Part shown: positions 32,844 through 55,953 of the stretch, piece after piece
Position numbering within the stretch: the stretch's first letter is position 1
Layout: each line of letters opens with the position of its first letter
From: a virus
Virus record (IMG/VR): IMGVR_UViG_3300044591_000410
Location: 4,159 to 68,158 of that record
Strand: one strand, 5' to 3'
DNA length: 64,000 nucleotides
Program-made: the position numbers and the translations under genes
The notes under the pieces: model-generated
Database searches by the model: none
What the model saw: the letters and a program-made list of their open reading frames with translations, nothing else
What the model was told of the DNA's origin: nothing

Positions 32844-33160
32844 GGAATCTACCCCGGTAATTGCGGGGTTGGTCCCTAGTGGATATCCTTGGTATCTGTC
32901 ATTATGGCGGTAGAAATCGACTTAGGGGTCGTGGATTTACAACGGGGTATTTGACATAGTGTGGCCGCGCACACCCCCCGCCACCCCCCGTCGATGTCCC
33001 CTAGGGGCATATGCCGGGTCAATCCGAAGCAATCCGAACAATTTGCCTAGGATTCCCATGCTCCGAGTTCATGGGGTATATCTATTGGAATCAGAGGAGT
33101 TTCCCATCAGCGTGATGGTATCCCCTGCTTCTTTCCTAGTGTTCTCGAAAGGAACAAGCG

Positions 33161-33427
33161 ATGTCCAACAAGGATATGGCTGCGGCACTCGCCGCTATCG
33201 TCGCCCTGCTCTCGCAGCAGGGCATCACCGTCCCCACCACCAAGCCCGTGAAGGCGCGCAAGGCCAAGGCGAAGGCCGAGCCGAAGGCCAAGCGCAAGAA
33301 GGGCGCAACCCCCGCTCAACGCGCTCATTACAACTCCATGAAGACCAGCCACCCTTGCCCGTTCCGTCCCGGAATGGTCGAGCGTGAAGCCTACCGCGCA
33401 GCGAAGGCTGCGGGGCTGATTGGCTGA
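33161..33427 (+). CDS. First early gene, small basic K/A-rich protein
   Basis: GAAAGGA SD; GC-rich codons; histone-like 'KARKAKAKAEPKAKRKK'. Confidence 0.8.
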   Translation: MSNKDMAAALAAIVALLSQQGITVPTTKPVKARKAKAKAEPKAKRKKGATPAQRAHYNSMKTSHPCPFRPGMVEREAYRAAKAAGLIG

Positions 33428-33430
33428 TCG

Positions 33431-33485
33431 GGCGACAACTTTGGAGTACCCACCCTACGGGGTGGGACTCTCCTAGGCTGTTGCC
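33431..33485 (+). ncRNA. Conserved cis RNA hairpin motif, copy 1 (cUACGg tetraloop)
   Basis: Core GGAGTA-CCCACC-CTACGG-GGTGGG-ACTCTCC; homologous to 35413-35463 with compensatory changes. Confidence 0.7.
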
Positions 33486-33493: not shown

Positions 33494-33523
33494 GCCACAG
33501 CAGAACTGTGGCTGTTTCTTTCT
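33494..33523 (+). terminator. Intrinsic terminator-like hairpin
   Basis: GCCACAG-CAGAA-CTGTGGC followed by TGTTTCTTTCT. Confidence 0.5.
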
Positions 33524-33537
33524 GAAAGGTTTCAAAC

Positions 33538-33654
33538 ATGGGAATCATTCTTGGTACTTTGGCTTTGTTGGGTCTTGCAAGTTTCTTGGCATTTGCAGTC
33601 ATGTGGGACACCATGACCCCGAGCGACCGCCGCAAGGCGGGATTCAAGGACTAA
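33538..33654 (+). CDS. 38-aa early membrane peptide (not in ORF track)
   Basis: GAAAGG SD; MGIILGTLALLGLASFLAFAVMWDTMTPSDRRKAGFKD. Confidence 0.65.
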   Translation: MGIILGTLALLGLASFLAFAVMWDTMTPSDRRKAGFKD

Positions 33655-33660
33655 CATTTC

Positions 33661-33696
33661 ACTCAAGGTAAACCTAACGGTTTGCCTTGGGTTTCT
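33661..33696 (+). other. Intergenic hairpin (terminator or RNase III-type processing site)
   Basis: ACTCAAGGTAAACC-TAAC-GGTTTGCCTTGGGT followed by TTCT. Confidence 0.55.
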
Positions 33697-33763
33697 AGGT
33701 AGCACTTTGCTACCAGCAGCGTCACGGCTGAACCGTGATATTCCTTACAGAAAGGAGACATCC

Positions 33764-34141
33764 ATGAAGGATGTCATCATCGTGACCCGCCATGCGGGTC
33801 TAGTCATTGTCCTCGCAGAGGACTACGGAATTGCGGGGCCAGTCTTGGCCCACGTTACTGCCGCAGATGTACGCGGCAAGGCCGTCGTTGGAGTGCTTCC
33901 GCTGCATTTGGCTGCGGAAGCGAAGTCGGTGACCGAGGTTACCCTGAATCTCCCCCCCGAACTGCGGGGGCAAGAACTCACCATTGAGCAGGTGCGGCAG
34001 CATATGAAGGGACTCCGCACCTATGTGGTGCGAAGCCTTGAAGCCTTCAACCTCAACAACGAAGAGGAGTGGAGGTCGGGGTATGGTGGAAGCATGGGGT
34101 GGGGCTCGATCCCCGACCCCATCGGGAGGAAGTCGAAGTGA
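33764..34141 (+). CDS. Csx16 (Cas_VVA1548)-like protein, candidate cyclic-oligoadenylate ring nuclease / anti-CRISPR
   Basis: 'IIVTRHAG', 'AHV', 'VVGVLPLHLAA', 'LNLPPELRGQELT.E' and 'LRTYVV' follow the Csx16 pattern SRHxG..H..VIGTLPxHLAA..LDLP..LRGxELS; GAAAGGAG SD. Confidence 0.8.
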   Translation: MKDVIIVTRHAGLVIVLAEDYGIAGPVLAHVTAADVRGKAVVGVLPLHLAAEAKSVTEVTLNLPPELRGQELTIEQVRQHMKGLRTYVVRSLEAFNLNNEEEWRSGYGGSMGWGSIPDPIGRKSK

Positions 34142-34452
34142 AGAAGCATCAGCCTTGGGGCAAGGACATCGTTATCATCAAGGTTTACGACCTTGATGCC
34201 GTGCTCCTCTTCGACCGTGCTGTAATCGAAGAGGTAGCAAGGGAAGAGGCGGAGAAGATCGCCTCGACCCTGTTCCCCGGATACAAGGTGCAATGGTGTA
34301 CCCCGTCCGGAAAGACCCTTGGTCAGGTGACTGCCGCACCTGCACCGCAACACAAGTTGCCTGTTTGCCCTTTCTGTGGGCAACTCCTTGTCACCATGCG
34401 TGACGAGGTTGGAGCAAAGTGCGCCATGTGTTTCAGTTGGATCCACGGATGA
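34138..34452 (+). CDS. Early protein with C-terminal Zn ribbon
   Basis: GTG start with GGAGG SD; CPFC...CAMC. Confidence 0.65.
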   Translation: MKKHQPWGKDIVIIKVYDLDAVLLFDRAVIEEVAREEAEKIASTLFPGYKVQWCTPSGKTLGQVTAAPAPQHKLPVCPFCGQLLVTMRDEVGAKCAMCFSWIHG

Positions 34453-34508
34453 TAGCGATTCGTGGACGCAGCACCTCTCGCGCGTAAACATACGCGCGTT
34501 GGTATATG

Positions 34509-34597
34509 GGCTTGATTTGTCCTAGTGGACAACGGCCCACGGCCTCTGCATACGCGCATATGTGTATGCTTATGGCGGCTTGATTTGTCCTAGTGGA
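34509..34597 (+). repeat. Perfect 21-bp direct repeat, candidate promoter or operator
   Basis: GGCTTGATTTGTCCTAGTGGA at 34509-34529 and 34577-34597 in a non-coding gap. Confidence 0.85.
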
Positions 34598-34700
34598 GAT
34601 GCTCACCCCTGCATAGGCGAAGGCTTATGTGGGGGTTTCACCATGCATCAGCGTAGGTGTATGGTTGTTTGGTTTCTTTCTTTATGAAAGGAAGGGGCAA

Positions 34701-35408
34701 ATGAACATCAGCCCCGATATCGTCCAGCAGATCCTCCTCTCCCTCTTGCAGAGTCAGGCTGCTTCTGCCACCACCACCGTGGCTCCCGCTCCTGTGGCTA
34801 CGGCCTCCCCTTCGTGGGTTGACGCAGTCACCGCTGCCTTTCCTGCCATCGTTGGCAGCAACGGCAAGCGCGGGTCGATGAACATCGCGAAGAATCCTTG
34901 CTTCACGGCATCGACAAAGGAAGTTCACGAAGGTGTGAACAACGAGATCGCCAACGGCAAGCCGGGGATTTGGTGCGCCGAGGCTTGCTACCGTGCTGCC
35001 AAGAAGGGCATTGCGGTCAGCGAGTACCTCAAGGCCAAGACTCCGGCTCCTGCCAAGGCTGCAACCCCTTCTCCTACCGTTACGGTGGCGACCATTCCGC
35101 CTGAACTGGCGGCAATGGCCGAGCAGATGGGCTTCACCTTGGTTCCCAAGGCTGATGCTTCCGTGGCTCCCCCTGTCAAGCGCATGAAGGGGCAGGCCCG
35201 TTTGACCTGCCTTCAGACTGCGTTGGCTGCGGCCAAGGCGGGCGAGCGCGGCGCTGCCAAGGTGGAGTTGGTGCAGGTCGGACTCCTCAAGGAGTCTGAC
35301 AAGATGCGTCTTGGCAAGATGATCCCGCTGATCGAAGCGGAGATTGCCAAGATGACCACGGTCAGCAAGGCTCCTCACGCGGGAGTCCCCAACCTGACGG
35401 TGGCCTGA
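34701..35408 (+). CDS. Early A/P/K-rich protein, probable paralogue of 33161-33427
   Basis: GAAAGGAAGG SD; shares SM..PC(P)F..(R/K)PG..EA(C)YRAAK..G motif with the first early gene. Confidence 0.8.
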   Translation: MNISPDIVQQILLSLLQSQAASATTTVAPAPVATASPSWVDAVTAAFPAIVGSNGKRGSMNIAKNPCFTASTKEVHEGVNNEIANGKPGIWCAEACYRAAKKGIAVSEYLKAKTPAPAKAATPSPTVTVATIPPELAAMAEQMGFTLVPKADASVAPPVKRMKGQARLTCLQTALAAAKAGERGAAKVELVQVGLLKESDKMRLGKMIPLIEAEIAKMTTVSKAPHAGVPNLTVA

Positions 35409-35412
35409 ACAT

Positions 35413-35463
35413 CCCGAGTTTCGGAGTATCCCTTCTACGGAAGGGAACTCTCCCAAACTTGGG
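35413..35463 (+). ncRNA. Conserved cis RNA hairpin motif, copy 2 (cUACGg tetraloop)
   Basis: Core GGAGTA-TCCCTT-CTACGG-AAGGGA-ACTCTCC; followed by hairpin TACTAGTAAC-ATACGG-GTTACTAGTA (35465-35490). Confidence 0.7.
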
Positions 35464-35523
35464 GTACTAGTAACATACGGGTTACTAGTATAAGTTAGCA
35501 TCTTCACTAGAAAGGAGAATCAC

Positions 35524-37557
35524 ATGAATCAGAAACTGCTTGAGCAGCAGTTTGTGGGTTGTGTGAACAACGCAGAAGTTGTGATTGCTGGTTTCGCAGA
35601 AGCCCTTGGTAACTTGCGGTTTAGCCGCAAGCCTGCATGGTTCAAGTTCGTGCAGCAGAATACCAACTGGGTGGCGAACGCTACGGTGTATGCCGTCGTT
35701 CGCAATGTTTCGGAACGAGCAACCACCGAAGTTCACGCTGTCATTGCAGACCTTGCGTTTGCAATCCAGCGGGACTGGCAGGTGGATCGTAACGATGCGT
35801 TGACTTGGGCATGGAACATCGTTCACTTGGCTGAACAAGCCGGGTGGGTGACCTTGTACAAGACTTCGGAAATGACCCTCGTCAAGATGACCTCACGCTT
35901 TGCGTTTCAGCTGTATGAGAACAATGCGTGGGGCATGGCGGGTTGTTTCCGTCCACCGATGGTGGAACGACCACGGCCACACCGTGACAGTCGCCCCGGA
36001 GGATACCACAACCCACAGATGCGGCGTGGTATTAGCCACGGATCATGGAAGGAACTTGCGAGTGCGCCTCGCATGATTCTCACCATGAATCGCATGATGT
36101 TCACGAAGTGGCATATCTCGCAAGAGATGTTGTCCATTGCGAAGGAAGTCTTTGCACTTCCTGAAGTGATCGTGGATCATCGTCGTGATCGGTATGGACA
36201 CGACACCACGCTGGCAATGGCCGAGCAGTTCAGCGGTGTGGAGTTCTACAATCCCACCTACGCTGATGTTAGCGGTCGCATTTATTATGAGTGTGACTTG
36301 CTGTCACCGCAGGGCAATGACCTTGCGCGTGGTTTGCTGCATGGAACAGACCATGCCCTTACTGATAAGGGTTGGTTCTGGCTTGCGGTGCATGTGGCAA
36401 ACTCTTTCAGCGGCATCGGTGGCGTTGGTAAACTTGACAAGACTCCTTACAAGGATCGTGTCAAGTGGACACACAAGAACTCCGATACGCTCTGCCTCGT
36501 TGCCGAAGACCCCATGCGTTACATGCATGTGTGGTTCAACGGCATCGGGAAGGGAGCGGGATCATTCCAAGCACTTGCTGCGCTGCTTGCTTGGCGACGA
36601 GCCAAGGACACCGGACGATGCTGTTTGCATGTGAGGTTGGATCAGACAACCTCCAACTACGGCATCAAGGGTGGGCTGCTGCGAGATCAGCAACTGTGCG
36701 AGTTGACCAACATGGTTCCCTCGTCCGAGGTGCAGGATATGCACAGCGTGACGGCTACAAACCTTATGGGTTTGTTGGCTGATTCCGATTATTCGGATTT
36801 CACAACCATGATTGCTGGGACACCGGACAAGCCTAACCGCAAGTTCGTCAAGTCACCCAGCATGGTCAGCGGCTACGGTGGTACGACCCGTGGCATTGCA
36901 CAGTCGTTGTTTGGAAAGCGTGAGTGGGCTTTCCACGACAACAAGTGGAAGAAGGTTGCCGAAGAAGGCAGCATCCCCGACCTTGTGTCTGGTGACGATC
37001 CTCGCCATCAGTTCAAGGTGGCAATGGATATTGCTTCCATGTGTAAGGAAGCAGTAGAAATCACCGCTCCCGGTGCGTTCAAGGTCATGCGTTATCTCAA
37101 GGAGGTTGTCAAGGTTGCCCGTGAGAAGAAGATGGAGAACATTATGTGGTATTCTCCATCAGGCAAACTCATTGTGCTTCATCCTCGTAAGCGGGGTGAG
37201 CAGATGATCGTGGCATCATCCGAGTTTGGTGGTGCTTCACTCAAGTGGCATCCTTGGACTGATGAAACCAACTGGCGTAAGATGGCTACGGCCATCTCTC
37301 CACGATGGATTCAACCCATCGACGCTTCCCTTCTTCACATTGCAGGCAGTATGTTCCGGCATGAGTTTGCCGGGGTGCATGACTGCATCCAATGTCACCC
37401 CAATCAGATGGGGAAGTTTCTTGTGTACATGAGGAAGGCAATGTACATGATTATGGAATCCAATCCTCTTGTCAAGTTCTGTGAGCAGTTCGGCATTACT
37501 GTTGAGCAGGGCGATTGGGATACCAAGGATTGCCTCAAGGCTAATCCTTGGCACTAA
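35524..37557 (+). CDS. Divergent T7-type single-subunit RNA polymerase (RNAP-1, 677 aa)
   Basis: PMV..P...GGY; DVSGRIY..LSPQGNDLARGLL; WLAVHVAN; motif A LDQTTS; motif B RKFVKSPSMVSGYG; ISPRWIQPIDAS; motif C VHDC. Confidence 0.9.
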   Translation: MNQKLLEQQFVGCVNNAEVVIAGFAEALGNLRFSRKPAWFKFVQQNTNWVANATVYAVVRNVSERATTEVHAVIADLAFAIQRDWQVDRNDALTWAWNIVHLAEQAGWVTLYKTSEMTLVKMTSRFAFQLYENNAWGMAGCFRPPMVERPRPHRDSRPGGYHNPQMRRGISHGSWKELASAPRMILTMNRMMFTKWHISQEMLSIAKEVFALPEVIVDHRRDRYGHDTTLAMAEQFSGVEFYNPTYADVSGRIYYECDLLSPQGNDLARGLLHGTDHALTDKGWFWLAVHVANSFSGIGGVGKLDKTPYKDRVKWTHKNSDTLCLVAEDPMRYMHVWFNGIGKGAGSFQALAALLAWRRAKDTGRCCLHVRLDQTTSNYGIKGGLLRDQQLCELTNMVPSSEVQDMHSVTATNLMGLLADSDYSDFTTMIAGTPDKPNRKFVKSPSMVSGYGGTTRGIAQSLFGKREWAFHDNKWKKVAEEGSIPDLVSGDDPRHQFKVAMDIASMCKEAVEITAPGAFKVMRYLKEVVKVAREKKMENIMWYSPSGKLIVLHPRKRGEQMIVASSEFGGASLKWHPWTDETNWRKMATAISPRWIQPIDASLLHIAGSMFRHEFAGVHDCIQCHPNQMGKFLVYMRKAMYMIMESNPLVKFCEQFGITVEQGDWDTKDCLKANPWH

Positions 37558-37572
37558 TATGCTAGGAAAGGT

Positions 37573-37818
37573 TTGATAATGACGCAGACGATGAAGCAGA
37601 TCAAGCAGTTGATTTACTTTCATGCTCCCGATAAGGAGACTTTGGATAGGATGTTGGCGTTTCTTGATGCCAACGATAACTTGATTGCGGCACAGGATCG
37701 GCTTATTGATGCTTATAAGGATAACATCAAGAAGCAAAAGGAAATCATCGAAGCACAGAAAAATCTGTGTGAGATGCAGACGACGCAGATTCGGGTTCTC
37801 TCTGAAAGGAACGCATGA
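37573..37818 (+). CDS. Hypothetical coiled-coil protein
   Basis: GAAAGG SD; start could be a nearby ATG. Confidence 0.65.
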   Translation: MIMTQTMKQIKQLIYFHAPDKETLDRMLAFLDANDNLIAAQDRLIDAYKDNIKKQKEIIEAQKNLCEMQTTQIRVLSERNA

Positions 37819-38045
37819 ACAGCATATTTGTCATTGTAGACAAGCAGGGTAATAAGACCGTGGTTGATAAGGATCATACGGTCTTTATCGTTAGAGAGTC
37901 CGCCTTTATTGATGCGGAATCTAATGATGAACCCATTAGTGACATTCCTTGGTGTGTAGAATATAACCTTGACACTCTTTTGTTTTTGGGTTATAAAGCG
38001 TCTGAGTATCACATCTTTGAAGGAGATTTGAATGTTTGTAAGTAA
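37815..38045 (+). CDS. Hypothetical protein
   Basis: GAAAGGA SD; ATGA overlap. Confidence 0.65.
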   Translation: MNSIFVIVDKQGNKTVVDKDHTVFIVRESAFIDAESNDEPISDIPWCVEYNLDTLLFLGYKASEYHIFEGDLNVCK

Positions 38046-38292
38046 TAATAAAACAGGCGTTACCATTACTTTTGCCAATGGGTGGGAAATCTCTGCCCAA
38101 TGGGGGCAAGGTACTTATAGTGATGGGTATTATGAAGGTGGTAGCCGTTGCCCCAACGCGGAAATTGCCATCTTTGATAACGACGATAACTTTGTTCGTT
38201 ATGCACATCATAAGGATGATGTGATTGGTTATGTAGACCCTAATGACTTTGTTCTGATGTGCGTTTGGGCAATGTCCCAAGAGAGACACTAA
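38032..38292 (+). CDS. Hypothetical phage protein
   Basis: AAGGAG SD; 'TFANGWEISAQWG.GTY...AEIAI..DDVIGY'. Confidence 0.7.
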   Translation: MFVSNNKTGVTITFANGWEISAQWGQGTYSDGYYEGGSRCPNAEIAIFDNDDNFVRYAHHKDDVIGYVDPNDFVLMCVWAMSQERH

Positions 38293-38459
38293 TGAATAAA
38301 GATGGTTTTGTTACCGTTGTGGTTCTTAATGACGGTGAGACTTATACCGACATTACTGGGTGTTCTATTATGGTTGTCCCTGCTGAACAGTATTATAAAG
38401 CTGTTTCTGAAGGCGGGGATGCTAGGGATTTTGAACCTGTTGTAAAGGTAAATCTGTGA
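38292..38459 (+). CDS. Hypothetical protein
   Basis: TAATG overlap; 'VVLNDGETYTDI.GC'. Confidence 0.6.
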   Translation: MNKDGFVTVVVLNDGETYTDITGCSIMVVPAEQYYKAVSEGGDARDFEPVVKVNL

Positions 38460-38532
38460 TTGCCGCAGTAATTCTCTTGGCTTATGCCATCGTCGTTTGT
38501 GTTACCATTCACTCTCTTTGGAAGGACTATTA

Positions 38533-38679
38533 ATGGAAAAGATTATGGAACATTTCAATGCCCTTATGATGGCTGTTGAAGAACGGCATGAAGAGGAAGG
38601 GGATATGACGCATATCCTTACTATGATGTACGCTCTTGGTGATCGTATTATGGAAGCCGATGATGCTAACGCTGACTAA
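38533..38679 (+). CDS. Small acidic hypothetical protein
   Basis: AAGGA SD; D/E/M-rich. Confidence 0.55.
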   Translation: MEKIMEHFNALMMAVEERHEEEGDMTHILTMMYALGDRIMEADDANAD

Positions 38680-39421
38680 ACCTTTTATTTTTGACGGTTC
38701 CCTTTATCTTTATGATGAAGTGTTCTTTGATGAGGAACTAAATCAAGAGGTAGCATTCTATGAGAATCTGCCTTATAATATTCGTACTCAATGTAGTGCG
38801 GGTAGTTGCGCTCTTTTTATCTGGAACAACGCAGAACCTAATAACGACCATCAGTACGGTATTAAAATCTTTGACTATGGTATTGAAGAAAAGTGCAAGC
38901 AAGAGGCTTATAACTCTTTCCTTCGTCAAAAGGCTGCGGCTAGGGAAAGTCTTGCTCCTCCTGCTCACTTTATGATAAAGGTTTACCGTAATGGTAGGAT
39001 GTGCTGGGGTTATACTACCAGCGTAGCCGAAGATACTACTTATGTGTTCTTCCCCGAAGAAGAAGCCGATAATATGTATCAAGATTACGAAGCATCCTTT
39101 AATCTCGATAAGGAATATGCCATTACCAGTCTTTCTAATGTCCTCAAGTGTTACAATCTTACGGATATTCAAGACGATGCTAATGATCTAATGGATAAAC
39201 TCAAAGAATCTGACCCCATGTCTTTTGAAGCATGGCTTTGTTACAATGAGTATAACATTGTAGATGTATACCCACTTAAATGTAAGTTGGAAATGGTTGA
39301 ATTGGTTATTAACGGTGATGTAGTGTATCTTGGCGGCGACTTGCATGGCGGTAACATTGGTTACTATAAGGGTAACCTTGTTTGTGTAGACTTTTCACAC
39401 CACTCACAAGAAGGAGATTAA
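38660..39421 (+). CDS. Protein kinase-like (T7 gp0.7 analogue)
   Basis: 'SAGSCA' Gly loop, 'GIKIF' Lys, helix-C Glu 'QEAY', catalytic loop 'DLHGGNI', 'VDF'. Confidence 0.75.
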   Translation: MMLTLTKPFIFDGSLYLYDEVFFDEELNQEVAFYENLPYNIRTQCSAGSCALFIWNNAEPNNDHQYGIKIFDYGIEEKCKQEAYNSFLRQKAAARESLAPPAHFMIKVYRNGRMCWGYTTSVAEDTTYVFFPEEEADNMYQDYEASFNLDKEYAITSLSNVLKCYNLTDIQDDANDLMDKLKESDPMSFEAWLCYNEYNIVDVYPLKCKLEMVELVINGDVVYLGGDLHGGNIGYYKGNLVCVDFSHHSQEGD

Positions 39422-39423
39422 TA

Positions 39424-39579
39424 ATGAAGTATAATAAGAACGAACTCACGCCTTTCCACCAGCGTATTGCAAGAGCCTATATCAAGGATCTTATTGCAGA
39501 TCCTAATACCTGTGATATCCTTCGCAAGAAGTTGAAGGCTAAGGTTACTAAGAAGAAGGCTAAGAAGGTGCGTGTTTAA
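39424..39579 (+). CDS. Small basic hypothetical protein
   Basis: AAGGAG SD; K-rich C-terminus. Confidence 0.6.
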   Translation: MKYNKNELTPFHQRIARAYIKDLIADPNTCDILRKKLKAKVTKKKAKKVRV

Positions 39580-39588
39580 GGAGAACCT

Positions 39589-39780
39589 GTGAATAACTGG
39601 ATCATTAAGGTATTCTTTTCAGCGGATTTTGAAATCGTGTGGCATAGCGTCTATTGTAAGGACGAGTATATCGACTCGTTCTGCAATTATAACGACGCTG
39701 TTTCTTTCGTGTTGTATAACTCCCGCACTAACCCTGATGGCCGAATGGTCGGGGCTACTGATAGAGTCCCACATGGTTGA
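39589..39780 (+). CDS. Hypothetical protein
   Basis: AAGGAG SD, GTG start. Confidence 0.55.
   Translation: MNNWIIKVFFSADFEIVWHSVYCKDEYIDSFCNYNDAVSFVLYNSRTNPDGRMVGATDRVPHG
39745..39763 (+). promoter_or_regulatory. Putative phage RNAP promoter
   Basis: ATGGTCGGGGCTACTGATA; upstream of the tRNA cluster and RNAP-2. Confidence 0.6.
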
Positions 39781-39943
39781 GATTGTTCCCCTCCCTAAGG
39801 GACAGAGTAAGTTAATTATTAATAAACTAGTATCCCTTATAGTAGAAACCAAGGATCTAGATGCATGGATGCTTGGTTATTCTGCATCGTTCTGCTTCCC
39901 ATATCTAACTAAAGATGAACAACAACTCCTCGACAACGCTTAG
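39773..39943 (+). CDS. Hypothetical protein
   Basis: Fills the gap between overlapping + strand ORFs. Confidence 0.45.
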   Translation: MVEIVPLPKGQSKLIINKLVSLIVETKDLDAWMLGYSASFCFPYLTKDEQQLLDNA

Positions 39944-40157
39944 TGATTACATTTCATTCCTTCGTGAACTGCGTGTTCTTATTCATTGTGAAATGGATCA
40001 AGATCCCGCTATTTCTCCCCGGCAATATGCCGACATTTGGACAGCCGTAGATCTTGCATATGATCTTCTTCTTCAAGATAAGTTTTATGTGACTGCTGAA
40101 GAAGAACAGATTATTGAAGATTGCTTCTGTCGCTTTTATGGAGTAGGTAATGGATAA
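39915..40157 (+). CDS. Hypothetical protein
   Basis: ORF in the compact + strand array. Confidence 0.55.
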   Translation: MNNNSSTTLSDYISFLRELRVLIHCEMDQDPAISPRQYADIWTAVDLAYDLLLQDKFYVTAEEEQIIEDCFCRFYGVGNG

Positions 40158-40266
40158 GTATACCAAAGAAGATCTTAATATGATCTATAGACTCATGTGT
40201 TTGAATAAGTTCTGCGAGGCAATGGATATGCTTTGTGCTTTGATGCATAAACATAACATCAAGTAA
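40150..40266 (+). CDS. 38-aa hypothetical protein (not in ORF track)
   Basis: GGAG SD; MDKYTKEDLNMIYRLMCLNKFCEAMDMLCALMHKHNIK. Confidence 0.45.
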   Translation: MDKYTKEDLNMIYRLMCLNKFCEAMDMLCALMHKHNIK

Positions 40267-40273
40267 TACCTTT

Positions 40274-40346
40274 GCCCCTATAGCTCAGTTGGTAGAGCAG
40301 TAGACTTTTAATCTATCGGTCGTAGGTTCGATCCCTACTGGGGGCA
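40274..40346 (+). tRNA. tRNA-Lys(UUU)
   Basis: GCCCCTA/TGGGGGC acceptor, GCTC/GAGC D-stem, CT-TTT-AA loop, GTAGG-TTCGATC-CCTAC; no encoded CCA. Confidence 0.95.
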
Positions 40347-40351
40347 TTCAC

Positions 40352-40425
40352 AGAAGGGTGGCTGAAATAGATAGAGCGCATGCCTTATAAGCGTGAATAT
40401 GTGGGTGCAACTCCCGCCCCTTCTA
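40352..40425 (+). tRNA. tRNA-Ile(UAU)
   Basis: AGAAGGG/CCCTTCT acceptor, CATGC-CT-TAT-AA-GCGTG anticodon arm, atypical T-loop TGCAACT. Confidence 0.8.
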
Positions 40426-40436
40426 TTAAGTGCCAT

Positions 40437-40510
40437 ATTCCCGTAGCTCAACTGGATAGAGCGTGGCACTTCTAATGCTAAGGTTAGTGGTTCAAGTCCA
40501 CTCGGGAATG
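40437..40510 (+). tRNA. tRNA-Arg(UCU)
   Basis: ATTCCCG/CGGGAAT acceptor, TGGCA-CT-TCT-AA-TGCTA anticodon arm, AGTGG-TTCAAGT-CCACT. Confidence 0.95.
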
Positions 40511-40525
40511 TTCTAAAGGAGATCC

Positions 40526-40849
40526 ATGAATAATATTAACACTACAGCAAGAGATGACTTTGAGTTCTATATAAATGATAGATGTCTCATAGCCCATATT
40601 CATTATGGTATTGATGGCCGTGATTATGGTGACGATGCACCCTGTGATTACGACTACGAGATATTGTGGGTAAGTGAATGGTTTGAAGATGGTTCGGCTG
40701 TTATTTATGACGGCAATAACCCAAGTGAACAGATGTGTGGTCTGTTGTTAACGCTTGGTGGAATGTTTGTTATGCAGTATGGTCATGTATTTAATCAATT
40801 GAAAGGTAATGAACCGGATGGAACCCCAGACAACTACGATGAGTTTTAA
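40526..40849 (+). CDS. Acidic hypothetical protein
   Basis: AAGGAG SD. Confidence 0.65.
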   Translation: MNNINTTARDDFEFYINDRCLIAHIHYGIDGRDYGDDAPCDYDYEILWVSEWFEDGSAVIYDGNNPSEQMCGLLLTLGGMFVMQYGHVFNQLKGNEPDGTPDNYDEF

Positions 40850-41102
40850 AGATATGGTTGATATTGTTACTACTAAGGTGTATGTTATAAGCCTTGCGTC
40901 AGGTGCTAGTGTAGGATACCCTATTCCAAACTTCTCTGGCATCGCTCGTTTTGAAAACAGTTACAATGGTATCAAGACTGTGATTGATGAACTTACTAAG
41001 TTGTACTATAAGGAGTATGAGAATGATGGCATTACTCCCAATCCTCCTAAGTTCACCGTTGAAATCAAGTCTATTGTTCTTGGCGACACTCTTTACAAGT
41101 AA
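40809..41102 (+). CDS. Hypothetical protein
   Basis: + strand ORF; start uncertain. Confidence 0.55.
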   Translation: MNRMEPQTTTMSFKDMVDIVTTKVYVISLASGASVGYPIPNFSGIARFENSYNGIKTVIDELTKLYYKEYENDGITPNPPKFTVEIKSIVLGDTLYK

Positions 41103-41111
41103 AGGAAAATT

Positions 41112-41375
41112 ATGGAAAACATGTATCTTATGATGGTTAGTCTGTTTGTTATGGTTGTTTGTGCGTTTGCTTTTAATATCCTCTCTCACCGTAAGCTTAC
41201 TAAAGCTATGCGTAATATTGAACAAGATGTAAGAGAAAATAATAATCAATGGGCTGACAACAACTACTACATTAAGAATTTGGAAGAACAGATTCACCGC
41301 GATATGCGTTGGCTTCAGGAATCCATTGATACTCTTGTTGAGCAAGGTATGAAGAAGAAGGTTAGCAAGAAGTGA
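41112..41375 (+). CDS. Membrane-anchored coiled-coil protein
   Basis: AAGGA SD; N-terminal TM helix. Confidence 0.65.
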   Translation: MENMYLMMVSLFVMVVCAFAFNILSHRKLTKAMRNIEQDVRENNNQWADNNYYIKNLEEQIHRDMRWLQESIDTLVEQGMKKKVSKK

Positions 41376-41575
41376 ACCCAGAACGGTTTAAGAAAGATAA
41401 AGAAAAGCGGGATAAACGGAATGAATACCCCAAGCGAAACAAACTCAAACCCTACAAACGAGCAGAAACAAGAAACAAAGACAGAGCAGGTAGAGTCGAA
41501 GAGTAAATGCGGTTGCGGATACCGTATGGTTGACTGTTTGGGTTGTGATAATATTAAGCCACTAAGGAGAAACTA

Positions 41576-42574
41576 ATGGCACACATGATTGAGTCTGAAG
41601 ATTCGGCAATGTTCTATAAGGAAGCAGCATGGCACGGCATTGGTACTGTTGTTGAGACTGCGCCTAGTCCTAGCGAAGCACTTAAGATTGCTGGTCTTGA
41701 TTGGTCGGTTCTTCGTAGCGGATCTATTAGCGCCACTTATGGTGATGATAGTGAGACTACGACTAAGGACTTCACTGCTTTGGTTCGCTCCGATACTGGG
41801 CGTATCCTGAGTGTTCAGTCCCCTGATTATAAGATTGTTCAGAATGAAGAAATGTTTGACCTTGCCTATTCTCTTGGAGAAGATGTTAAGGTTGAGTCTG
41901 CGTTCTCTATGGGCAACGGCACCCGGGTTGTGTGTCTCCTTCGGGGAGAAACCTTTGCCCCTGCCAATAGCAAGGAAGATCTTATCAGCAAGTATATGTG
42001 CCTTGTGAACTCTCACAATGGTACGCTTGCTTTGTCAGCCTTGCCCACTAGTATCCGTGTTGTTTGTAATAACACCCTGAGTATGGCTTTGTCTGCTGGA
42101 CAGAAGAAGATGTACCGTGTTGTTCATTCTGGCAATATGAACGCTAAGAAGGAAGCAATGCAGAAAGCTCTTACTAACTATAAGAATACTGGTAAGATGT
42201 TTGAAGAGCATGTTAATGTTCTCTCATCCCGCACTTTGAATGTGCAGGATATCCAGCGGTTCTGGCTTGAGCTTTATGGCCGGGTTGAAACCCCGGTTGT
42301 TGGTAATCCCAAGACTGAAGATGAGTATGATAATTATATCAAGGCTCAGACCACTATTGCTAAGTGGTCGGATATCTTCGATGCAGAGCGTCGGCGCATC
42401 AATGCCCCGGCATCTATGTGGGTTGCTGTTAATGCGGCAACTAACTGGATGCAGCACCGCATCCCTAGCCGTGGTAAGATTCCCACGACTGAGAGTCGTA
42501 ACTTCAATAACATCGTCGGTTCTACTTCAGACACGGTGTCTGATGCTGTCCGATTCGCAATGTCTTATGTTTAA
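41576..42574 (+). CDS. DUF932-family (TIGR03299-like phage/plasmid) protein
   Basis: 'MAH..E....FY...AWHGIG', 'AGLDW.V', 'Y.IVQN', 'NSHNG', 'IRVVCNNTL'. Confidence 0.9.
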   Translation: MAHMIESEDSAMFYKEAAWHGIGTVVETAPSPSEALKIAGLDWSVLRSGSISATYGDDSETTTKDFTALVRSDTGRILSVQSPDYKIVQNEEMFDLAYSLGEDVKVESAFSMGNGTRVVCLLRGETFAPANSKEDLISKYMCLVNSHNGTLALSALPTSIRVVCNNTLSMALSAGQKKMYRVVHSGNMNAKKEAMQKALTNYKNTGKMFEEHVNVLSSRTLNVQDIQRFWLELYGRVETPVVGNPKTEDEYDNYIKAQTTIAKWSDIFDAERRRINAPASMWVAVNAATNWMQHRIPSRGKIPTTESRNFNNIVGSTSDTVSDAVRFAMSYV

Positions 42575-42584
42575 ATAAGTAAGG

Positions 42585-42653
42585 GGAGCGGTAGCCCAAA
42601 TAGAGGCGGGTAGACAATACCGTTCAGTGTGGGTTTAAATCCCACCCGCTCCT
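42585..42653 (+). ncRNA. tRNA-like RNA with an aberrant anticodon arm
   Basis: GGAGCGG/CCGCTCC acceptor, GCC/GGC D-stem, GGTA-GACAA-TACC arm, GTGGG-TTTAAAT-CCCAC T-arm. Confidence 0.6.
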
Positions 42654-42673
42654 CCCCTTATTAAAGGAAAACT

Positions 42674-43105
42674 ATGGATAAACTGATTGCTGAAAAGTGG
42701 GTTGCTGCTCTTCGTAGCGGCGAGTATAAGCAGGGTAAAGGTGTGCTGCATAACCAAGACAGTAACACTTACTGCTGTCTTGGTGTTCTTTGTGATCTTT
42801 TTGTAAAGGAAAAGAATATTAAGGACACTTATTGTCAGCAGCGTATGCTTAGCGATACCTCAATTGTTACAGTCTTTGGTGATTCTACTGGCACTTTGCC
42901 AAGCGATGTTCGTCATTGGTCATTGATTGGTGACGATAATGGGCGGTTTAATTATGACCAGCCTATTCCAAGCAGTAAAGGTACTGCATACTTTAGGGAT
43001 GAAGATATTTGCCTGCTTACTAGTATGAATGACGGTGAGTACGGTCACGACTTTACCTTTGAAGAAATTGCAACTATTATTGAAGAACAATGGAGACAAC
43101 TGTGA
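42674..43105 (+). CDS. Conserved phage protein of unknown function
   Basis: 'KWVAALRSGEYKQG...YCCLGVLC...MND....FEEIA' motif. Confidence 0.8.
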   Translation: MDKLIAEKWVAALRSGEYKQGKGVLHNQDSNTYCCLGVLCDLFVKEKNIKDTYCQQRMLSDTSIVTVFGDSTGTLPSDVRHWSLIGDDNGRFNYDQPIPSSKGTAYFRDEDICLLTSMNDGEYGHDFTFEEIATIIEEQWRQL

Positions 43106-43338
43106 ACTTTGGTATTGACCCTAACAACAGAGATCGTTGCGTTATTCAAGCTCCTTGTGATCTTGCATATATGCAGAAGCAGCGGGATCTTCTTTGGAAG
43201 ATCTACTCTGATTCCCTGCTCTCTAGTGATGAAGATCTTGCTTATCTTCGTACCACTATTGGTTTTCTAGATCACTTTATTCACGGTATATACTTTGTAG
43301 CCGCTGAATACCATACTGCTAACAGGAGTATTTATTAA
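43090..43338 (+). CDS. Hypothetical protein
   Basis: Overlapping + strand ORF. Confidence 0.55.
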   Translation: METTVNFGIDPNNRDRCVIQAPCDLAYMQKQRDLLWKIYSDSLLSSDEDLAYLRTTIGFLDHFIHGIYFVAAEYHTANRSIY

Positions 43339-43683
43339 ATGCTTATTAAGTCAAATGAAAAGTTTGTTAAGAAGTTTAAAATTCCCTTTGTTTATTACGA
43401 TCTTTGTATATCTTTTAAGTTGAACAACGAACAAGATCTTAATGACCCTGTTGATTGGATCATGGGAGAAGATTGTACCTACGGTAAAAATAAGAAGCGC
43501 GCTAGTGCTTTCAAGAAGCTTAAACTTCTTGAACCCAGCACTGGATATAATCTTATGACTTACGAAAGAGATCTTACTTTCTTTGGATGTACAAAAGAAC
43601 AGATGCAGTATCTTATCAACGCTTATAAGAATAGTCCATTCCGTATTACTTATCTTGAATGTCAGATTGAAGATTGTTGTTAA
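43339..43683 (+). CDS. Hypothetical protein
   Basis: AGGAG SD. Confidence 0.6.
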   Translation: MLIKSNEKFVKKFKIPFVYYDLCISFKLNNEQDLNDPVDWIMGEDCTYGKNKKRASAFKKLKLLEPSTGYNLMTYERDLTFFGCTKEQMQYLINAYKNSPFRITYLECQIEDCC

Positions 43684-43801
43684 TAGAGGCTGTAATGGAA
43701 ACACTGTTTATTGTTGCTATTTACTTGCTAGGTATTATTACTGGTCAATGTATTACTGGCATTGCCATGCTGTGGGGAAATAAAAAATAAAAGGAGACAC
43801 T

Positions 43802-46282
43802 ATGCCAAAGATGTGGGACAGACTAACTAAAGAAGAGCAGGAAAGAAAAAAGAACCTGCAAGTTATTGCTGAAGAACATATGTTGGCTGTGTCTGAAAAT
43901 AAGTATTGGGAAGAATATGCTAGAGCACCCGACGAGGGTTATCCTGAACAGTCACTGCTTGATGTGTGTGTCATTCATCTTACGCCAATCTACCAGCAAT
44001 GGATAGATAATGTAGCAGAGAATCGTAAGACCCCGGAATGGGCTTACCCTTTGTTTGCTGTTGGTGCTGCTAAGATGGCAGACATTACTATAAGAGCTTT
44101 GATTCTTGAGTGGTTTAACTCGTCATTCTGGGATCGTAAGCATGAAGGGGATCTGTTCCCCATGCCTACGGCTCAGCATATTAGCCATGTTATTTCAGAC
44201 ATGGTTATTGATATTGTTTCGTATCAGCAGGCCAAGCAACAGTTCAAAGAAGACTGGCTAAAGCAGTCGCACTATCAAAAGAATTGGACTGTTAAACGCT
44301 GCAAGGCTTTTGCTGGTAAGATGAACACACTTACTAAGAAGCAGTTCAGTCGTAAACAACGGGAAGATTTTGGCCATCACATGCTGCGTATTGCAGAGAT
44401 GTCCGACATTGTTAAGATTTATAACCACCGTAAGTTTACTGGTAAGCGTTGGATTGAGCGGGTTCTTGTTGGGTTTACGGATAACATTCTTGCTGAACTC
44501 AATAAGAGACACAACGATATGGTAACTAAAGCAGCAATGCTTTATCGTCCCATGATTGTTCCTCCTGTTGAACACACGGAAACATCTAGTGGTGGTAACC
44601 TGTTGCCTTATATCCGTAAGCCTGTTGTTCAGCGGTTCAAGGATGTTATGTGGGATGAGAATGTAACTCAGAAGAATTCAACGCCTTCTCCTATGGTTAT
44701 TCGTGGGCTGAATGCATTGATGCATACTGAGTGGACAATCAACGACCGTGTTCTTGAGGTGATGGAAAACTTGTTTGTCTCTAATACAAGACAAGCCAAT
44801 CTCCCCGCTTATGACTTCTCTGCCTTTGACTTTGGAGAACCCTATCCAAACGAAGGCACTAAGGAAGAGCAGGCCAAGTGGTGTCAGCGCAAAGAAGAAT
44901 CCTACAGTAACTGGTTCAAAGAAGAACGAGCCAGAGGTCGCATGCTTGTTAGACTACAGCTTGCAAAGGATTTGAAGAAGAATGGTTTCTTCTATCATAT
45001 CTTTACCTGTGACTTTAGAGGACGGGCAAATGCTGCTTGTGATCTTCTATCGCCTCAGGCAAGTGACTTTGATAGAGGTCTTATCCAGTTTGCTGCGGCC
45101 CAACCGCAGTCAATCAAGGGCAAGTATTGGCTTAAGGTTCACCTTGCCAATCTCTTTGACCAAGATAAGGATACCTTTGATAACCGGGTCAAGTGGGTAG
45201 ATGATAACATGGAGATGTTTGAGGCTATCAATAATGACCCGTACGATACCCGTAGTCTTTGGTTGTCGGATAAGAAGAAAAAGAATCCTAGCTTCCAAAG
45301 ACTTGCTGCTATCTTCGACCTTTGCCGTAAGGATAGTATGACTCAGGTTCCTGTTCAAATGGATGGTACTTGTAACGGTATCCAACATTGGGCAGCACTT
45401 ATGAAAGATCCTGTTCTTGCCGAGATGGTTAATCTTATCAAGGTTGACAAGCCAAACGATTGCTACGGTTATGTGGCTGATCTTATGACCGACAGTATGA
45501 AGAAGACTGTTGAAGATGAGAACGCAGATGCCGATAGTAAACAGTGGGCTTCTACTTTCTTGGAACACTGGGGAGGTAAGATCTCCCGTGCTGTTCCCAA
45601 GAGAGCGGTTATGACCGATCCCTATGGTGTTACCTTTTATGGTATTCGCCGTTACTGCAAGACCGAAGGACATCTTGACTGGGTTCCTAAGGAAAAGATA
45701 GCGGGTGCTGTTATGGAACTTGCTACCTTTATTGACAAGGCTTTGAAAGATACCTTGGTCGAGGCAAACAAGGGTAAGGTGTGGCTAAAGAATGTAGCAG
45801 ACATATGCTCAGAACTTGGTCACAGCATGGAGTGGACTACCCCGTGTGGTTTCAAGGTTGTCCACCAGTATTACGAGATACTAACTAGACGATCAATAGC
45901 TAAGTTGTTCAATATGAAAGAGCTTCACTTTGGATCCCCTGATAAGGATACGATTGATAACAGCTCTGTTAACTTGGCTATCTCTCCTAATTATATTCAC
46001 TCATTGGATGCCAGTCATATGTGGTGTACTATCAATGCAATGCTAGACGCAGGCATTGACCAGTTCTCCATGATCCATGACTCGTATGGTTGCTCTGCTC
46101 CATATACTTCACTGATGCGTGAGTATACCAAAGAAGAGTTTATGATGATGCATCAGGACAACCTGCTGCTTAAGCTTAAGAAAGAAATAGAAGCTAAGCT
46201 TAAGATTGAATTGCCAGACTGTCCTATTACTAACAACCTAGATATTGGGTCAGTGCTTGAGGCTGATTACCTGTTTCAGTAA
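43802..46282 (+). CDS. T7-type DNA-dependent RNA polymerase (RNAP-2, canonical)
   Basis: PMIVPP, DFRGR, LSPQASD..RGL, DGTCNGIQH, R...KRAVMT.PYG, ISPNYIHSLDASH, IHDSY, C-terminal DYLFQ. Confidence 0.98.
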   Translation: MPKMWDRLTKEEQERKKNLQVIAEEHMLAVSENKYWEEYARAPDEGYPEQSLLDVCVIHLTPIYQQWIDNVAENRKTPEWAYPLFAVGAAKMADITIRALILEWFNSSFWDRKHEGDLFPMPTAQHISHVISDMVIDIVSYQQAKQQFKEDWLKQSHYQKNWTVKRCKAFAGKMNTLTKKQFSRKQREDFGHHMLRIAEMSDIVKIYNHRKFTGKRWIERVLVGFTDNILAELNKRHNDMVTKAAMLYRPMIVPPVEHTETSSGGNLLPYIRKPVVQRFKDVMWDENVTQKNSTPSPMVIRGLNALMHTEWTINDRVLEVMENLFVSNTRQANLPAYDFSAFDFGEPYPNEGTKEEQAKWCQRKEESYSNWFKEERARGRMLVRLQLAKDLKKNGFFYHIFTCDFRGRANAACDLLSPQASDFDRGLIQFAAAQPQSIKGKYWLKVHLANLFDQDKDTFDNRVKWVDDNMEMFEAINNDPYDTRSLWLSDKKKKNPSFQRLAAIFDLCRKDSMTQVPVQMDGTCNGIQHWAALMKDPVLAEMVNLIKVDKPNDCYGYVADLMTDSMKKTVEDENADADSKQWASTFLEHWGGKISRAVPKRAVMTDPYGVTFYGIRRYCKTEGHLDWVPKEKIAGAVMELATFIDKALKDTLVEANKGKVWLKNVADICSELGHSMEWTTPCGFKVVHQYYEILTRRSIAKLFNMKELHFGSPDKDTIDNSSVNLAISPNYIHSLDASHMWCTINAMLDAGIDQFSMIHDSYGCSAPYTSLMREYTKEEFMMMHQDNLLLKLKKEIEAKLKIELPDCPITNNLDIGSVLEADYLFQ

Positions 46283-47690: not shown

Positions 47691-47709
47691 ATAGCTGGGG
47701 CTACTGATA
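47691..47709 (+). promoter_or_regulatory. Putative phage RNAP promoter
   Basis: ATAGCTGGGGCTACTGATA, intergenic, upstream of the SSB/replication block. Confidence 0.7.
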
Positions 47710-47736: not shown

Positions 47737-47928
47737 ATGGAAACTGAAACAACCGCAACAGAGACAATGCAAATGCCAAAGCAGTCAATTGCTGCTGATA
47801 GCGTAATCGCCTATCTCAATGTCATTGCAACCGCTCTCAATCAAATTACTCTTGATCTGAATAACCAGATCGCTAACATCAACGCTGCTATTAACAAGGA
47901 GAATGATACTAATGAATCAGCCAGCTAA
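47737..47928 (+). CDS. Small coiled-coil hypothetical protein
   Basis: AAGGAGG SD. Confidence 0.65.
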   Translation: METETTATETMQMPKQSIAADSVIAYLNVIATALNQITLDLNNQIANINAAINKENDTNESAS

Positions 47929-48460
47929 ACTCAAGAAGCTCCCCCAGTTTGTTACTGAAACCCTTGAGTGCAAGTGGTCTAACCTACTCAAGCCGGATAC
48001 GGCGTTTGGTGAAGCTTCTGCCAATCACAACATCACTGTTGTTATGGATCAGAAACTAAAGGCTAAACTTCAGGATGTTTTGAAGAAGTCTGGAGCCAAG
48101 AAGATCAATGGAATCTACGAGAAGGAAGGCGTGACCTATCTTAAGACTAAGAGCCGTCTTCATGTCGAAGCGGGTAAGTTCCCGTGTGTAGATGCCAATG
48201 CTCAGGAAACTGACATCGTTGCCTTTGGTGGTGACAAGGTAAAGCTTAAGCTTGCTCCTGCTATCGTTGCTAGAGACAAGTCACTTAGCTTCTACCTTAA
48301 TGGTGTTCAGATTATTGAGCGCAATGAAAACAACAACTCAGTCGGTTCGTCTGGTTTTAGCGCAGTTGACGGTGGCTTTACTAGCCCCAAGGCTGCGGCT
48401 GCTACTAAGCCAGCCGCTGTAGTTGTTGAAGAAACTGAAGACGAAGAACTACCGTTCTAA
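47912..48460 (+). CDS. Single-stranded DNA-binding protein (T7 gp2.5-like)
   Basis: 'L.KPDT.F', 'LSFYLNGVQII', acidic C-terminal tail ending 'EETEDEELPF'. Confidence 0.85.
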   Translation: MNQPAKLKKLPQFVTETLECKWSNLLKPDTAFGEASANHNITVVMDQKLKAKLQDVLKKSGAKKINGIYEKEGVTYLKTKSRLHVEAGKFPCVDANAQETDIVAFGGDKVKLKLAPAIVARDKSLSFYLNGVQIIERNENNNSVGSSGFSAVDGGFTSPKAAAATKPAAVVVEETEDEELPF

Positions 48461-55935: not shown

Positions 55936-55953
55936 TAGTTGGGGCTACGGATA
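55935..55953 (+). promoter_or_regulatory. Putative phage RNAP promoter
   Basis: ATAGTTGGGGCTACGGATA, intergenic before dUTPase. Confidence 0.7.

Follow-up and report, generated by a model that had tools for sequence, protein, structure and literature searches.

An accessory second T7-type RNA polymerase in the early region of an uncultured freshwater T7-like phage

What does a T7-like phage do with two complete T7-type RNA polymerases? The question is raised by a stretch of 64,000 bases (the window, in what follows), bases 4159-68158 of the 68,158-base IMG/VR record IMGVR_UViG_3300044591_000410. The window covers most of a genome of ca. 66.6 kb, that of an uncultured T7-like (Autographiviridae-like) phage from fresh water, and encodes two single-subunit RNA polymerases (RNAPs), here called RNAP-1 and RNAP-2. 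An initial annotation had seen in them a possible three-tier cascade, leading from the host enzyme to RNAP-1 and from RNAP-1 to RNAP-2, with two orthogonal classes of promoter. We found that both enzymes are intact and conserved, that they are kept in synteny, that RNAP-1 has an accessory distribution and that different sequence motifs are associated with the two polymerases. The reading towards which we lean, with some confidence, is that of an ordinary T7-like programme driven by RNAP-2, plus an optional, self-promoted immediate-early cassette that carries RNAP-1.

Both genes are full-length + strand open reading frames (ORFs) with the polymerase motifs A, B and C, at exactly the coordinates and lengths first given for them (Table 1). 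In a profile search with Pfam PF00940 (cut-off 22 bits), RNAP-1 scored 106.6 bits (E 1.7e-30) and RNAP-2 284.5 bits (E 2e-84), and both matched phrog_414 (“RNA polymerase”). Each polymerase is a single ORF with a PF00940 and a PHROG match, and these are two complete enzymes and not the halves of a split N4 RNAPII, as the initial annotation had maintained. A six-frame search of the whole record found no third PF00940 gene. The two proteins share 22% identity (E 4e-29), and among the cultured phages in GenBank the identity to either of them does not exceed ca. 28%. The specificity-loop strings that had been singled out at the outset are present letter for letter, and the two loops cannot be aligned convincingly with each other. 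Across nine members of the RNAP-1 family (32-98% identical), D373 of motif A, R439/K443/M447/Y451/G452 of motif B, H619/D620 of motif C and G251/R252 (DxxGR) are invariant; the RNAP-2 equivalents of the catalytic residues align with them. The family profile matches residues 390-862 of T7 RNA polymerase (E 5.8e-46), with residues 220-342 weakly aligned, and RNAP-1 is shorter at the N-terminus. The remainder of motif A, the residue at what we take to be the position of T7 H784 and the C-terminal “foot” are non-canonical, and these oddities are conserved family traits. The ratio of nonsynonymous to synonymous substitution rates (dN/dS) of RNAP-1 was 0.078-0.122 in 6/6 pairs, and by this measure it is a working gene under purifying selection, not a decaying relic. 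The best Foldseek matches of the RNAP-1 model were to T7 RNAP (E 6.5e-17), with template modelling (TM) scores to T7 RNAP of ca. 0.3.

The relatives reveal which of the two enzymes belongs to the core. Relatives of RNAP-2 (27-99% identity) were recovered at 41 viral loci, and none of these 41, including 13 with the full 10 kb upstream, gave a separate RNAP-1-type match. Ten records with RNAP-2 relatives, among them all eight with a completeness of 90-100%, were searched over their whole length, and each had a single polymerase ORF. For L010-L012 (87% RNAP-2 relatives), the contigs end too early to show whether RNAP-1 is present or absent. RNAP-2 is the core polymerase of the clade, and RNAP-1 is accessory. 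The synteny that the initial annotation had wished to see in related metagenomic phages is kept in L052, L053, L063 and L003, and RNAP-1 is missing from 8/8 near-complete relatives; of the two fates that had been named as fatal for the cascade, absence or decay of RNAP-1 in relatives, the former applies to these genomes; where RNAP-1 is present, it is under purifying selection. On the RNAP-2 tree, L015 and L037, neither of which has RNAP-1, fall between the window and L003, which do have it. Between the window and L053 the synonymous divergence (dS) is 0.094 for RNAP-1 and 0.73 for RNAP-2. Because of this patchy distribution on the RNAP-2 tree and the mismatch in dS between the polymerases, we conclude that the cassette has been exchanged or lost repeatedly. 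The same pair of genomes has a mosaic pattern of similarity, with RNAP-1 DNA 97.3% identical, RNAP-2 DNA 86.0% and the intervening small genes 31-79% in protein.

The RNAP-1 family is small. A single-protein search found no close relatives in IMG/VR, and the members were recovered with the family alignment instead. A profile search of 1.84 billion representatives returned ca. six full-length clusters (1196-320 bits), and the matches beyond those were ordinary RNAPs, through the catalytic half alone. A quick tree placed the RNAP-1 clade as sister to the clade holding RNAP-2 (Shimodaira-Hasegawa-like approximate likelihood ratio test, SH-aLRT, 99), with T7-like, LUZ100, cyanophage, Rhizobium-phage and Vibrio-phage enzymes on the other side; it is midpoint-rooted and has long branches, so no origin is read from it.

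Could the second polymerase be an artefact, i.e., a high-GC fragment joined chimerically into a phage of 40% GC, or a decaying pseudo-enzyme? RNAP-1 lies in a 4.7-kb stretch (32.8-37.5 kb) with a GC content of 50-65%, vs ca. 40% on both sides, and its motif A and C-terminus are unusual, as described above. However, metagenome contigs L052 and L053 cover RNAP-1, the small genes and RNAP-2, and the passage from the end of the giant 4267-aa gene through the high-GC stretch into RNAP-1 is spanned by L051, L052, L053, L058 and L059. L063 and the viral record G001 (L003) carry an RNAP-1 41% identical plus an RNAP-2 69% identical at equal spacing. A DNA run (X5) that is not flagged as the source contains an identical contig over 32679-37812. 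The GC contrast is equally strong in L059, from the 41% lineage (0.47-0.54 vs 0.28-0.36), and it is therefore a maintained feature and not a fresh import. With identical junctions in contigs of several assemblies and with the low dN/dS (0.08-0.12) and conserved odd motifs of RNAP-1, an artefact is extremely improbable; the chimera that the initial annotation had named as a possible refutation is contradicted, as independent contigs span the giant gene, RNAP-1 and RNAP-2. In every RNAP-1 lineage (including L003 and L059), the left-end early region stands 10-20 GC points above the rest of the genome, and in relatives that have no RNAP-1 (L015, L039 and L047) a shorter GC-rich patch is found 7-9.5 kb ahead of RNAP-2.

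The gene map of the phage closes with ORFs of 1205 and 4267 aa, the last of which stops at 32664, so that the left end of the genome is likely near 32.7 kb and the early region would extend over 32.7-43.8 kb. RNAP-1 has the same neighbors in every RNAP-1 lineage, and its place and orientation are constant in each locus seen. As we read it, the cassette would comprise, in this order, small genes each followed by an RNA hairpin with a UNCG loop, two tandem 21-bp repeats, the gene of a small protein (the partner), a hairpin and RNAP-1 (Table 1). Inspection of ORF lists found small ORFs resembling the 88-aa gene, with a similar C-terminal tail, in L053, L055, L058, L059 and L003. The 31-nt UNCG hairpin sits after the small early genes and after the partner gene. 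A regular expression for it matched the window, L003 and L050-L059, with two to three copies where enough upstream sequence is available, and none of the 41 RNAP-2-only loci. In an alignment of ten copies (nine distinct), 99% of cells pair and 5/7 pairs of the upper helix change on both sides; the covariation score is reached by 0/500 shuffles. Together with a lower stem, these elements form long irregular hairpins. The operon behind the tandem repeats has a structured 5' leader and a ribosome-binding site. Its leader (34600-34700) folds into three hairpins (-49.1 kcal/mol, z -6.5), and the loop sequence of the middle one is conserved between lineages. A noncoding element of ca. 45 nt close to the left end (32915-32960) is conserved in L058, L059 and L003, even in the 41% lineage, and contains an imperfect inverted repeat and a TTGACA-like hexamer.

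Table 1. Features discussed in the text, with positions in the 64,000-base window
Feature	Position	Strand	Basis or remark
Giant gene, 4267 aa	19861-32664	+	One fifth of genome; probable left genome end at its stop
19-bp motif, copy 1	32668-32686	+	Candidate RNAP-2-type promoter; directly after stop of 4267-aa gene
Best sigma-70-like site on + strand of 32-47 kb	32734-32761	+	10/12 matches; possible host promoter of early region, weak
88-aa basic protein gene	33161-33427	+	ORF list; first of cassette, followed by hairpin copy 1
UNCG-loop RNA hairpin, copy 1	33443-33473	+	Covariation
21-bp repeat, copy 1	34509-34529	+	Candidate RNAP-1 promoter
21-bp repeat, copy 2	34577-34597	+	Candidate RNAP-1 promoter; identical to copy 1, 68 bp downstream of it
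Partner protein gene, 235 aa from ATG	34701-35408	+	Directly upstream of RNAP-1; longest ORF from GTG 34629
UNCG-loop RNA hairpin, copy 2	35423-35453	+	Covariation; then second hairpin ending ca. 35491, just before RNAP-1
RNAP-1 (P0001), 677 aa, divergent single-subunit RNA polymerase	35524-37557	+	PF00940, PHROG; accessory in clade
19-bp motif, copy 2	39745-39763	+	Motif score; inside small ORF ca. 4 kb upstream of RNAP-2
Phage tRNA genes Lys-UUU, Ile-UAU, Arg-UCU	40273-40511	+	Between both polymerase genes
RNAP-2 (P0002), 826 aa, core T7 “gene 1” equivalent	43802-46282	+	PF00940, PHROG; directly upstream of replication module
19-bp motif, copy 3	47691-47709	+	Motif score
19-bp motif, copy 4	54015-54033	+	Motif score
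19-bp motif, copy 5	55935-55953	+	Motif score

Two unrelated kinds of promoter-like motif accompany the two enzymes. The five 19-bp sites of the window score 26.8-29.8 bits, and the next best sequence 15.2. We derived a matrix from the five sites and scanned 63 loci with it, counting scores of at least 16 bits, a threshold of our own choice. On the + strand, the motif was found in 33/41 RNAP-2 loci, including genomes without RNAP-1; on the minus strand it was found in 0/63. The place of copy 1 is conserved in L051-L053, L058, L059 and L003. The specificity loop of RNAP-2 is nearly constant where the motif is kept and different in L047 (50% identity), which is without the motif. For this reason we assign the 19-bp motif to RNAP-2, which, on this comparative evidence, most likely reads it, and the tandem 21-bp repeats are therefore left as candidate RNAP-1 promoters. 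The 21-mer has two copies, and no others exist in the window at up to six mismatches. Each RNAP-1 lineage has two to three tandem + strand repeats of ca. 21 bp located ca. 100 bp upstream of the partner gene, with a lineage-specific sequence: the 74% lineage has three substitutions, the same in both copies, and the 41% and 38% lineages carry other variants. The repeat cores are invariant between the clade of the window and the 74% clade, and the flanks vary. The specificity loop of RNAP-1 likewise differs lineage by lineage. In L064 (38% lineage) there is a fourth copy (L064:5543), 6 nt past the RNAP-1 stop, as if driving the next genes. The 3' halves of the repeats seem to resemble the start-site region of T7/SP6-type promoters. 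Thus, the initial claim of two orthogonal promoter classes holds insofar as there are two unrelated motif classes, each tracking one polymerase. It fares less well in that repeats of the RNAP-1 type occur only before its own operon, so that RNAP-1 looks like a self-promoted unit, with no regulon of middle genes. Other searches for promoters were discarded: a generic repeat search and brute-force clustering of 16-mers gave coding-sequence noise, an intergenic 12-mer search gave hairpin flanks and no promoter, the contexts of CTATAG/TATAGG did not form a family, and TGGGGCTA, tried as an extended core, had 6 matches vs 1.58 expected, with 2/100 shuffles reaching 6.

The partner gene appears to be a constant companion of RNAP-1. 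By tblastn it was found beside RNAP-1 in 15/18 loci of the family (L050-L067), and ORF inspection and alignment added L064 and L066. The protein is 225-235 aa long across lineages, is modeled as two small helical domains with disordered Ala/Pro-rich linkers between, and ends in a C-terminal tail that is invariant in the alignment. It had no Pfam match at E <=0.001 (the best PDB-profile match was at E 0.2), a Foldseek search with its model gave nothing at E <=0.001, and its best hit in VIA-align (Z 6.6) was a generic three-helix bundle, below the level meaningful for helical bundles. A model of its complex with RNAP-1, built from our own alignments (partner predicted local distance difference test, pLDDT, at least 58; run agreement at least 0%), scored 0.63 (runs 0.63, 0.64 and 0.00), and the best control 0.01; that mark is reached by 58/80 solved complexes and 2/110 mismatched pairs. 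The modeled interface puts the partner tail (225-235) on RNAP-1 residues 541-547, 602, 606 and 642-655, of which 541-547 are the conserved stretch leading into the specificity loop. These models support a predicted binding of the partner to RNAP-1 and suggest that it is a helper or regulator of this enzyme. A bolder version, which we advance only tentatively, is that RNAP-1 might be a two-component, factor-dependent T7-type polymerase, with the partner tail docked at the base of the specificity loop and at the C-terminal region. If this were true, an enzyme with a shortened N-terminal domain and no usual C-terminal foot would depend on the partner to recognize or activate its promoters at the tandem repeats, and promoter, factor, polymerase and RNA hairpins would form a portable cassette and possibly a new orthogonal expression system.

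Codon usage points to when RNAP-1 would be made. Its gene avoids AAA (3/40), ATA (0/28), AGA (0/40) and TTA (0/48), with a GC content at third codon positions (GC3) of 0.60, and the RNAP-2 gene uses AAA in 15/69, ATA in 7/44 and AGA in 13/39 cases. Throughout the RNAP-1 operon GC3 is 0.60-0.80 and the codons AAA, ATA, AGA and TTA are almost absent, whereas RNAP-2 makes moderate and the late genes heavy use of them. The phage tRNAs encoded at 40.3 kb, between the polymerase genes, serve exactly the codons that RNAP-1 avoids. This fits a translation of RNAP-1 on the host tRNA pool before the phage tRNAs and RNAP-2 appear, and such an early adaptation to host codons is one explanation of the persistent GC contrast. 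The early placement of RNAP-1 in the initial annotation is supported to this extent: its gene is in the part of the genome that enters first and has codons adapted to the host, and the phage tRNA genes and RNAP-2 both follow downstream.

Some transcription data were available as assembled contigs from three riverine metatranscriptome runs, derived from a strain ca. 95% alike. In X19 and X20, RNA contigs start 15 nt past repeat 1, at 34544, and have no loose end there, and the contigs of all three runs are interrupted near the hairpins (35340-35466); the contig from DNA is unbroken at both places. This hints, weakly, that transcription may start at the repeats and that the RNA may be processed at the hairpins. 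RNA cover is absent at 33503-34504 and 38513-39013 in the three runs, which, as the contigs come from a ca. 95%-alike strain, is no evidence of silence. The contig depth in X19 was 23-38 over the RNAP-1 operon vs 4-9 elsewhere, and such depths cannot rank genes. One X19 contig ends at 35301 and runs into apparent sequencing-adapter sequence, suggesting that many fragments ended there.

Taken together, we propose the following programme. Host RNA polymerase would transcribe the high-GC, host-codon-adapted left region. RNAP-1, probably with its partner, would then fire from its own tandem repeats, amplifying itself and proceeding to the right in the direction of RNAP-2, across the small AT-rich genes and the tRNA genes of the phage. 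Finally, RNAP-2, which sits where gene 1 sits in T7 and is the ordinary polymerase of the group, would take over at the 19-bp sites. The order host, RNAP-1, RNAP-2 is plausible where the cassette is present. Hence, from the three-tier cascade first proposed we retain the early position of RNAP-1 and the two motif classes, but the absence of RNAP-1 from the near-complete relatives means that such a cascade is no property of the phage group.

Several points weigh against this proposal. The same absence implies that the role of RNAP-1 is dispensable in the clade. No convincing conserved host promoter was found at the left end; the sigma-70-like site there is kept in L053 and was not detected in L058, L059 and L003. 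Since the 19-bp site at 32668 precedes the entire cassette, RNAP-1 may also be transcribed by RNAP-2, and the order becomes less clear-cut. Neither a 19-bp site nor another repeated promoter-like motif was found before the structural genes (56408-64000 and 1-19850). The tandem repeats could be operators of the partner protein or iterons and not promoters, and lineage-specific repeats and loops are also expected from shared descent alone. The AlphaFold model of RNAP-1 is poor (pLDDT 59.8, predicted TM score 0.39), with an unreadable N-terminal domain, and one of the three runs of the complex, made with our own alignments, scored 0.00. The RNA contigs, besides being from another strain, come from the same year and habitat and maybe from one campaign.

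Other roles for the cassette have to be weighed on the same evidence. In an obligatory three-tier cascade, RNAP-1 would be made by the host enzyme and would be required, via its own promoters, for RNAP-2, which would do the rest. Such an arrangement would agree with the gene order, the codon gradient, the position of the tRNAs and the two motif classes, and repeats of the RNAP-1 type are indeed upstream of everything from 34.5 kb to RNAP-2, with the extra copy after RNAP-1 in L064. We nevertheless consider it unlikely, given that 8/8 near-complete relatives run the same core genome on RNAP-2 alone, that 19-bp sites lie both 4 kb upstream of RNAP-2 and upstream of RNAP-1, and that cassette and RNAP-2 do not co-evolve, judging from the dS values of the window and L053. 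We give the same low credence to the idea that RNAP-1 acts mainly on DNA, by priming replication from the tandem repeats or by speeding entry of the early region beyond what host RNAP achieves. The primary origin of T7 has tandem promoters that prime replication, and here each tandem repeat is preceded by an AT-rich alternating stretch, and the repeats lie ca. 1.9 kb from the probable genome end; the early region measures 11.1-11.6 kb in genomes with RNAP-1 vs 8.2-9.5 kb in those without, i.e., it is ca. 2-3 kb longer. Yet GC skew shows no switch in the genome and there is no direct sign of an origin, and the repeats precede an operon whose 5' leader is structured and which has a ribosome-binding site, in the fashion of gene promoters.

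Less probable still seems a self-serving or counter-defense mobile unit whose transcription would mainly serve itself and a few cargo genes and which would pass between phages by recombination. It would account for the patchy distribution off the RNAP-2 tree, the mosaic pattern of similarity, the promoter-like repeats at its own operon only and the small size of the family. It is at odds with a genomic place and orientation that are constant in every locus seen and with the lack of any recombinase or mobility gene seen beside the cassette, and strong purifying selection, like the adaptation of codons to the host, speaks for a role in infection. We thus retain the optional immediate-early cassette, added to an RNAP-2-driven programme, as the preferred reading.

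The rest of the genome is that of a T7-like phage. The record is rated complete by CheckV, and its first 1,575 bases recur at its end (window 62426-64000 = record 1-1575), so that the assembly closes on itself with a unique length of ca. 66.6 kb. It is classed as “linear” despite this recurrence, which would correspond to a circular assembly or a long terminal repeat. All the convincing genes of the window are on the + strand, and PHROG matches give a T7-like gene map across it. After RNAP-2 come a metallophosphoesterase, a weak gp2.5-like single-stranded DNA-binding protein (SSB; ORF 47903-48460 vs phrog_112, E 5.6e-12), a RusA-type resolvase, thymidylate synthase, primase/helicase and DNA polymerase, followed by deoxynucleoside monophosphate kinase, exonuclease, ribonucleotide reductase, portal, scaffold, major capsid, tail tube and terminase. 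The giant protein (P0003) had no match in PHROG, Pfam or PDB-sequence searches, and its C-terminal 1000 aa are 39-99% conserved in relatives. An Rfam search found tRNAs and no other family; these include a fourth tRNA-like gene, at 42585-42653 (34 bits, gathering score 29), which is absent from the ARAGORN calls. The sequencing runs that match the phage are from lake water and river.

In vitro RNA synthesis and synthetic gene circuits rely heavily on T7-type polymerase/promoter pairs, and new orthogonal pairs would be useful. This phage offers two candidate pairs and a possible helper for the smaller enzyme. In this freshwater lineage at least, the second polymerase would be an optional, exchanged immediate-early cassette and no fixed tier of transcription. 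The relay is now testable, because candidate starts are defined for both enzymes: for RNAP-1 at ca. 34.53 and 34.60 kb, for RNAP-2 at the five 19-bp sites.

Among known systems, one comparable plan is that of T7 itself, in which host RNAP is followed by T7 RNAP, RNase III sites lie between the early genes and a phage promoter stands at the left end. As in T7, the genes are all on one strand and RNAP-2 precedes the genes for SSB, nuclease, primase/helicase, DNA polymerase and exonuclease; irregular hairpins separate early genes, one of them standing just before a polymerase gene, and there is a phage-type motif at the left end. In shape and location the UNCG hairpins resemble the RNase III sites found among the early genes of T7. 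T7, however, has one polymerase, whereas here a second one lies within the early region, with its own repeats and partner. For a single-subunit polymerase that depends on a small protein, as the predicted contact between RNAP-1 and its partner would imply, there are precedents in mitochondrial RNAPs, which use the initiation factors Mtf1/TFB2M, and in T7 RNAP, which binds T7 lysozyme (PDB 1ARO); structures of these systems are among the matches of the RNAP-1 profile and model searches. The partner has no detectable similarity to these proteins, and its contact comes from a model.

More than one T7-type polymerase per phage, a temporal relay and a polymerase needing a helper protein also bring to mind N4, with its virion RNAP, its heterodimeric RNAPII that needs a DNA-binding cofactor, and the host RNAP (PMC3821669 for part of this relay). 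Here, in contrast, both polymerases are single complete ORFs, there is no split RNAPII, and the RNAP-1 family profile matches N4 RNAP2 (PDB 6DT7) at E 1.5e-11, against 5.8e-46 for T7. Nor does the three-polymerase arrangement of N4-like phages (Schitoviridae) seem to apply, since sequence searches of the giant ORF, as a candidate N4-like virion RNAP, gave no RNAP signal (no PF00940 in six frames and no PHROG, Pfam or PDB-sequence match), although a very divergent RNAP domain could escape searches of this kind.

The premise that two RNAPs in a T7-like phage are unheard of is outdated, as a 2025 report describes an additional RNAP of ca. 650 aa in 23 AG-10.1 and 17 AG-14 Autographiviridae (PMC12361551). 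In its account, the marine AG-10.1 phages have large genomes, a giant gene of 3274-5566 aa and the additional RNAP between this gene and the typical one (ca. 800 aa), the AG-14 enzyme is placed elsewhere, and its authors suggest horizontal transfer and the use of different RNAPs for different genes. The genome described here shares with AG-10.1 the T7-like core genes in an enlarged genome, a giant gene (4267 aa), a typical RNAP upstream of the replication genes, an additional RNAP (677 aa) that lies among small genes, after the giant gene and before the typical RNAP, and the presence of this enzyme in some members only (PMC12361551). The likeness of RNAP-1 to the AG-10.1 enzyme is one of published layout. 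A family of ca. 650-aa RNAPs (P0022 type) considered as the counterpart of the published enzyme proved to be a large separate one, with 567 viral stretches and a tree clade of its own; a single-protein search returned nothing, and no link to AG-10.1 was established. The AG-10.1 phages are marine and the one described here is from lake-water and river runs; they are stated to be without SSB, whereas this genome has the weak gp2.5-like match at E 5.6e-12, and the passages describing AG-10.1 give no promoters, partner protein, hairpins or GC island (PMC12361551). Dual-RNAP Autographiviridae of such a layout were thus already known in 2025 (PMC12361551); relative to that description, the accessory nature of RNAP-1, the assignment of one motif per polymerase, the module of partner and hairpins, and the argument on timing from codons and tRNAs appear to be new.

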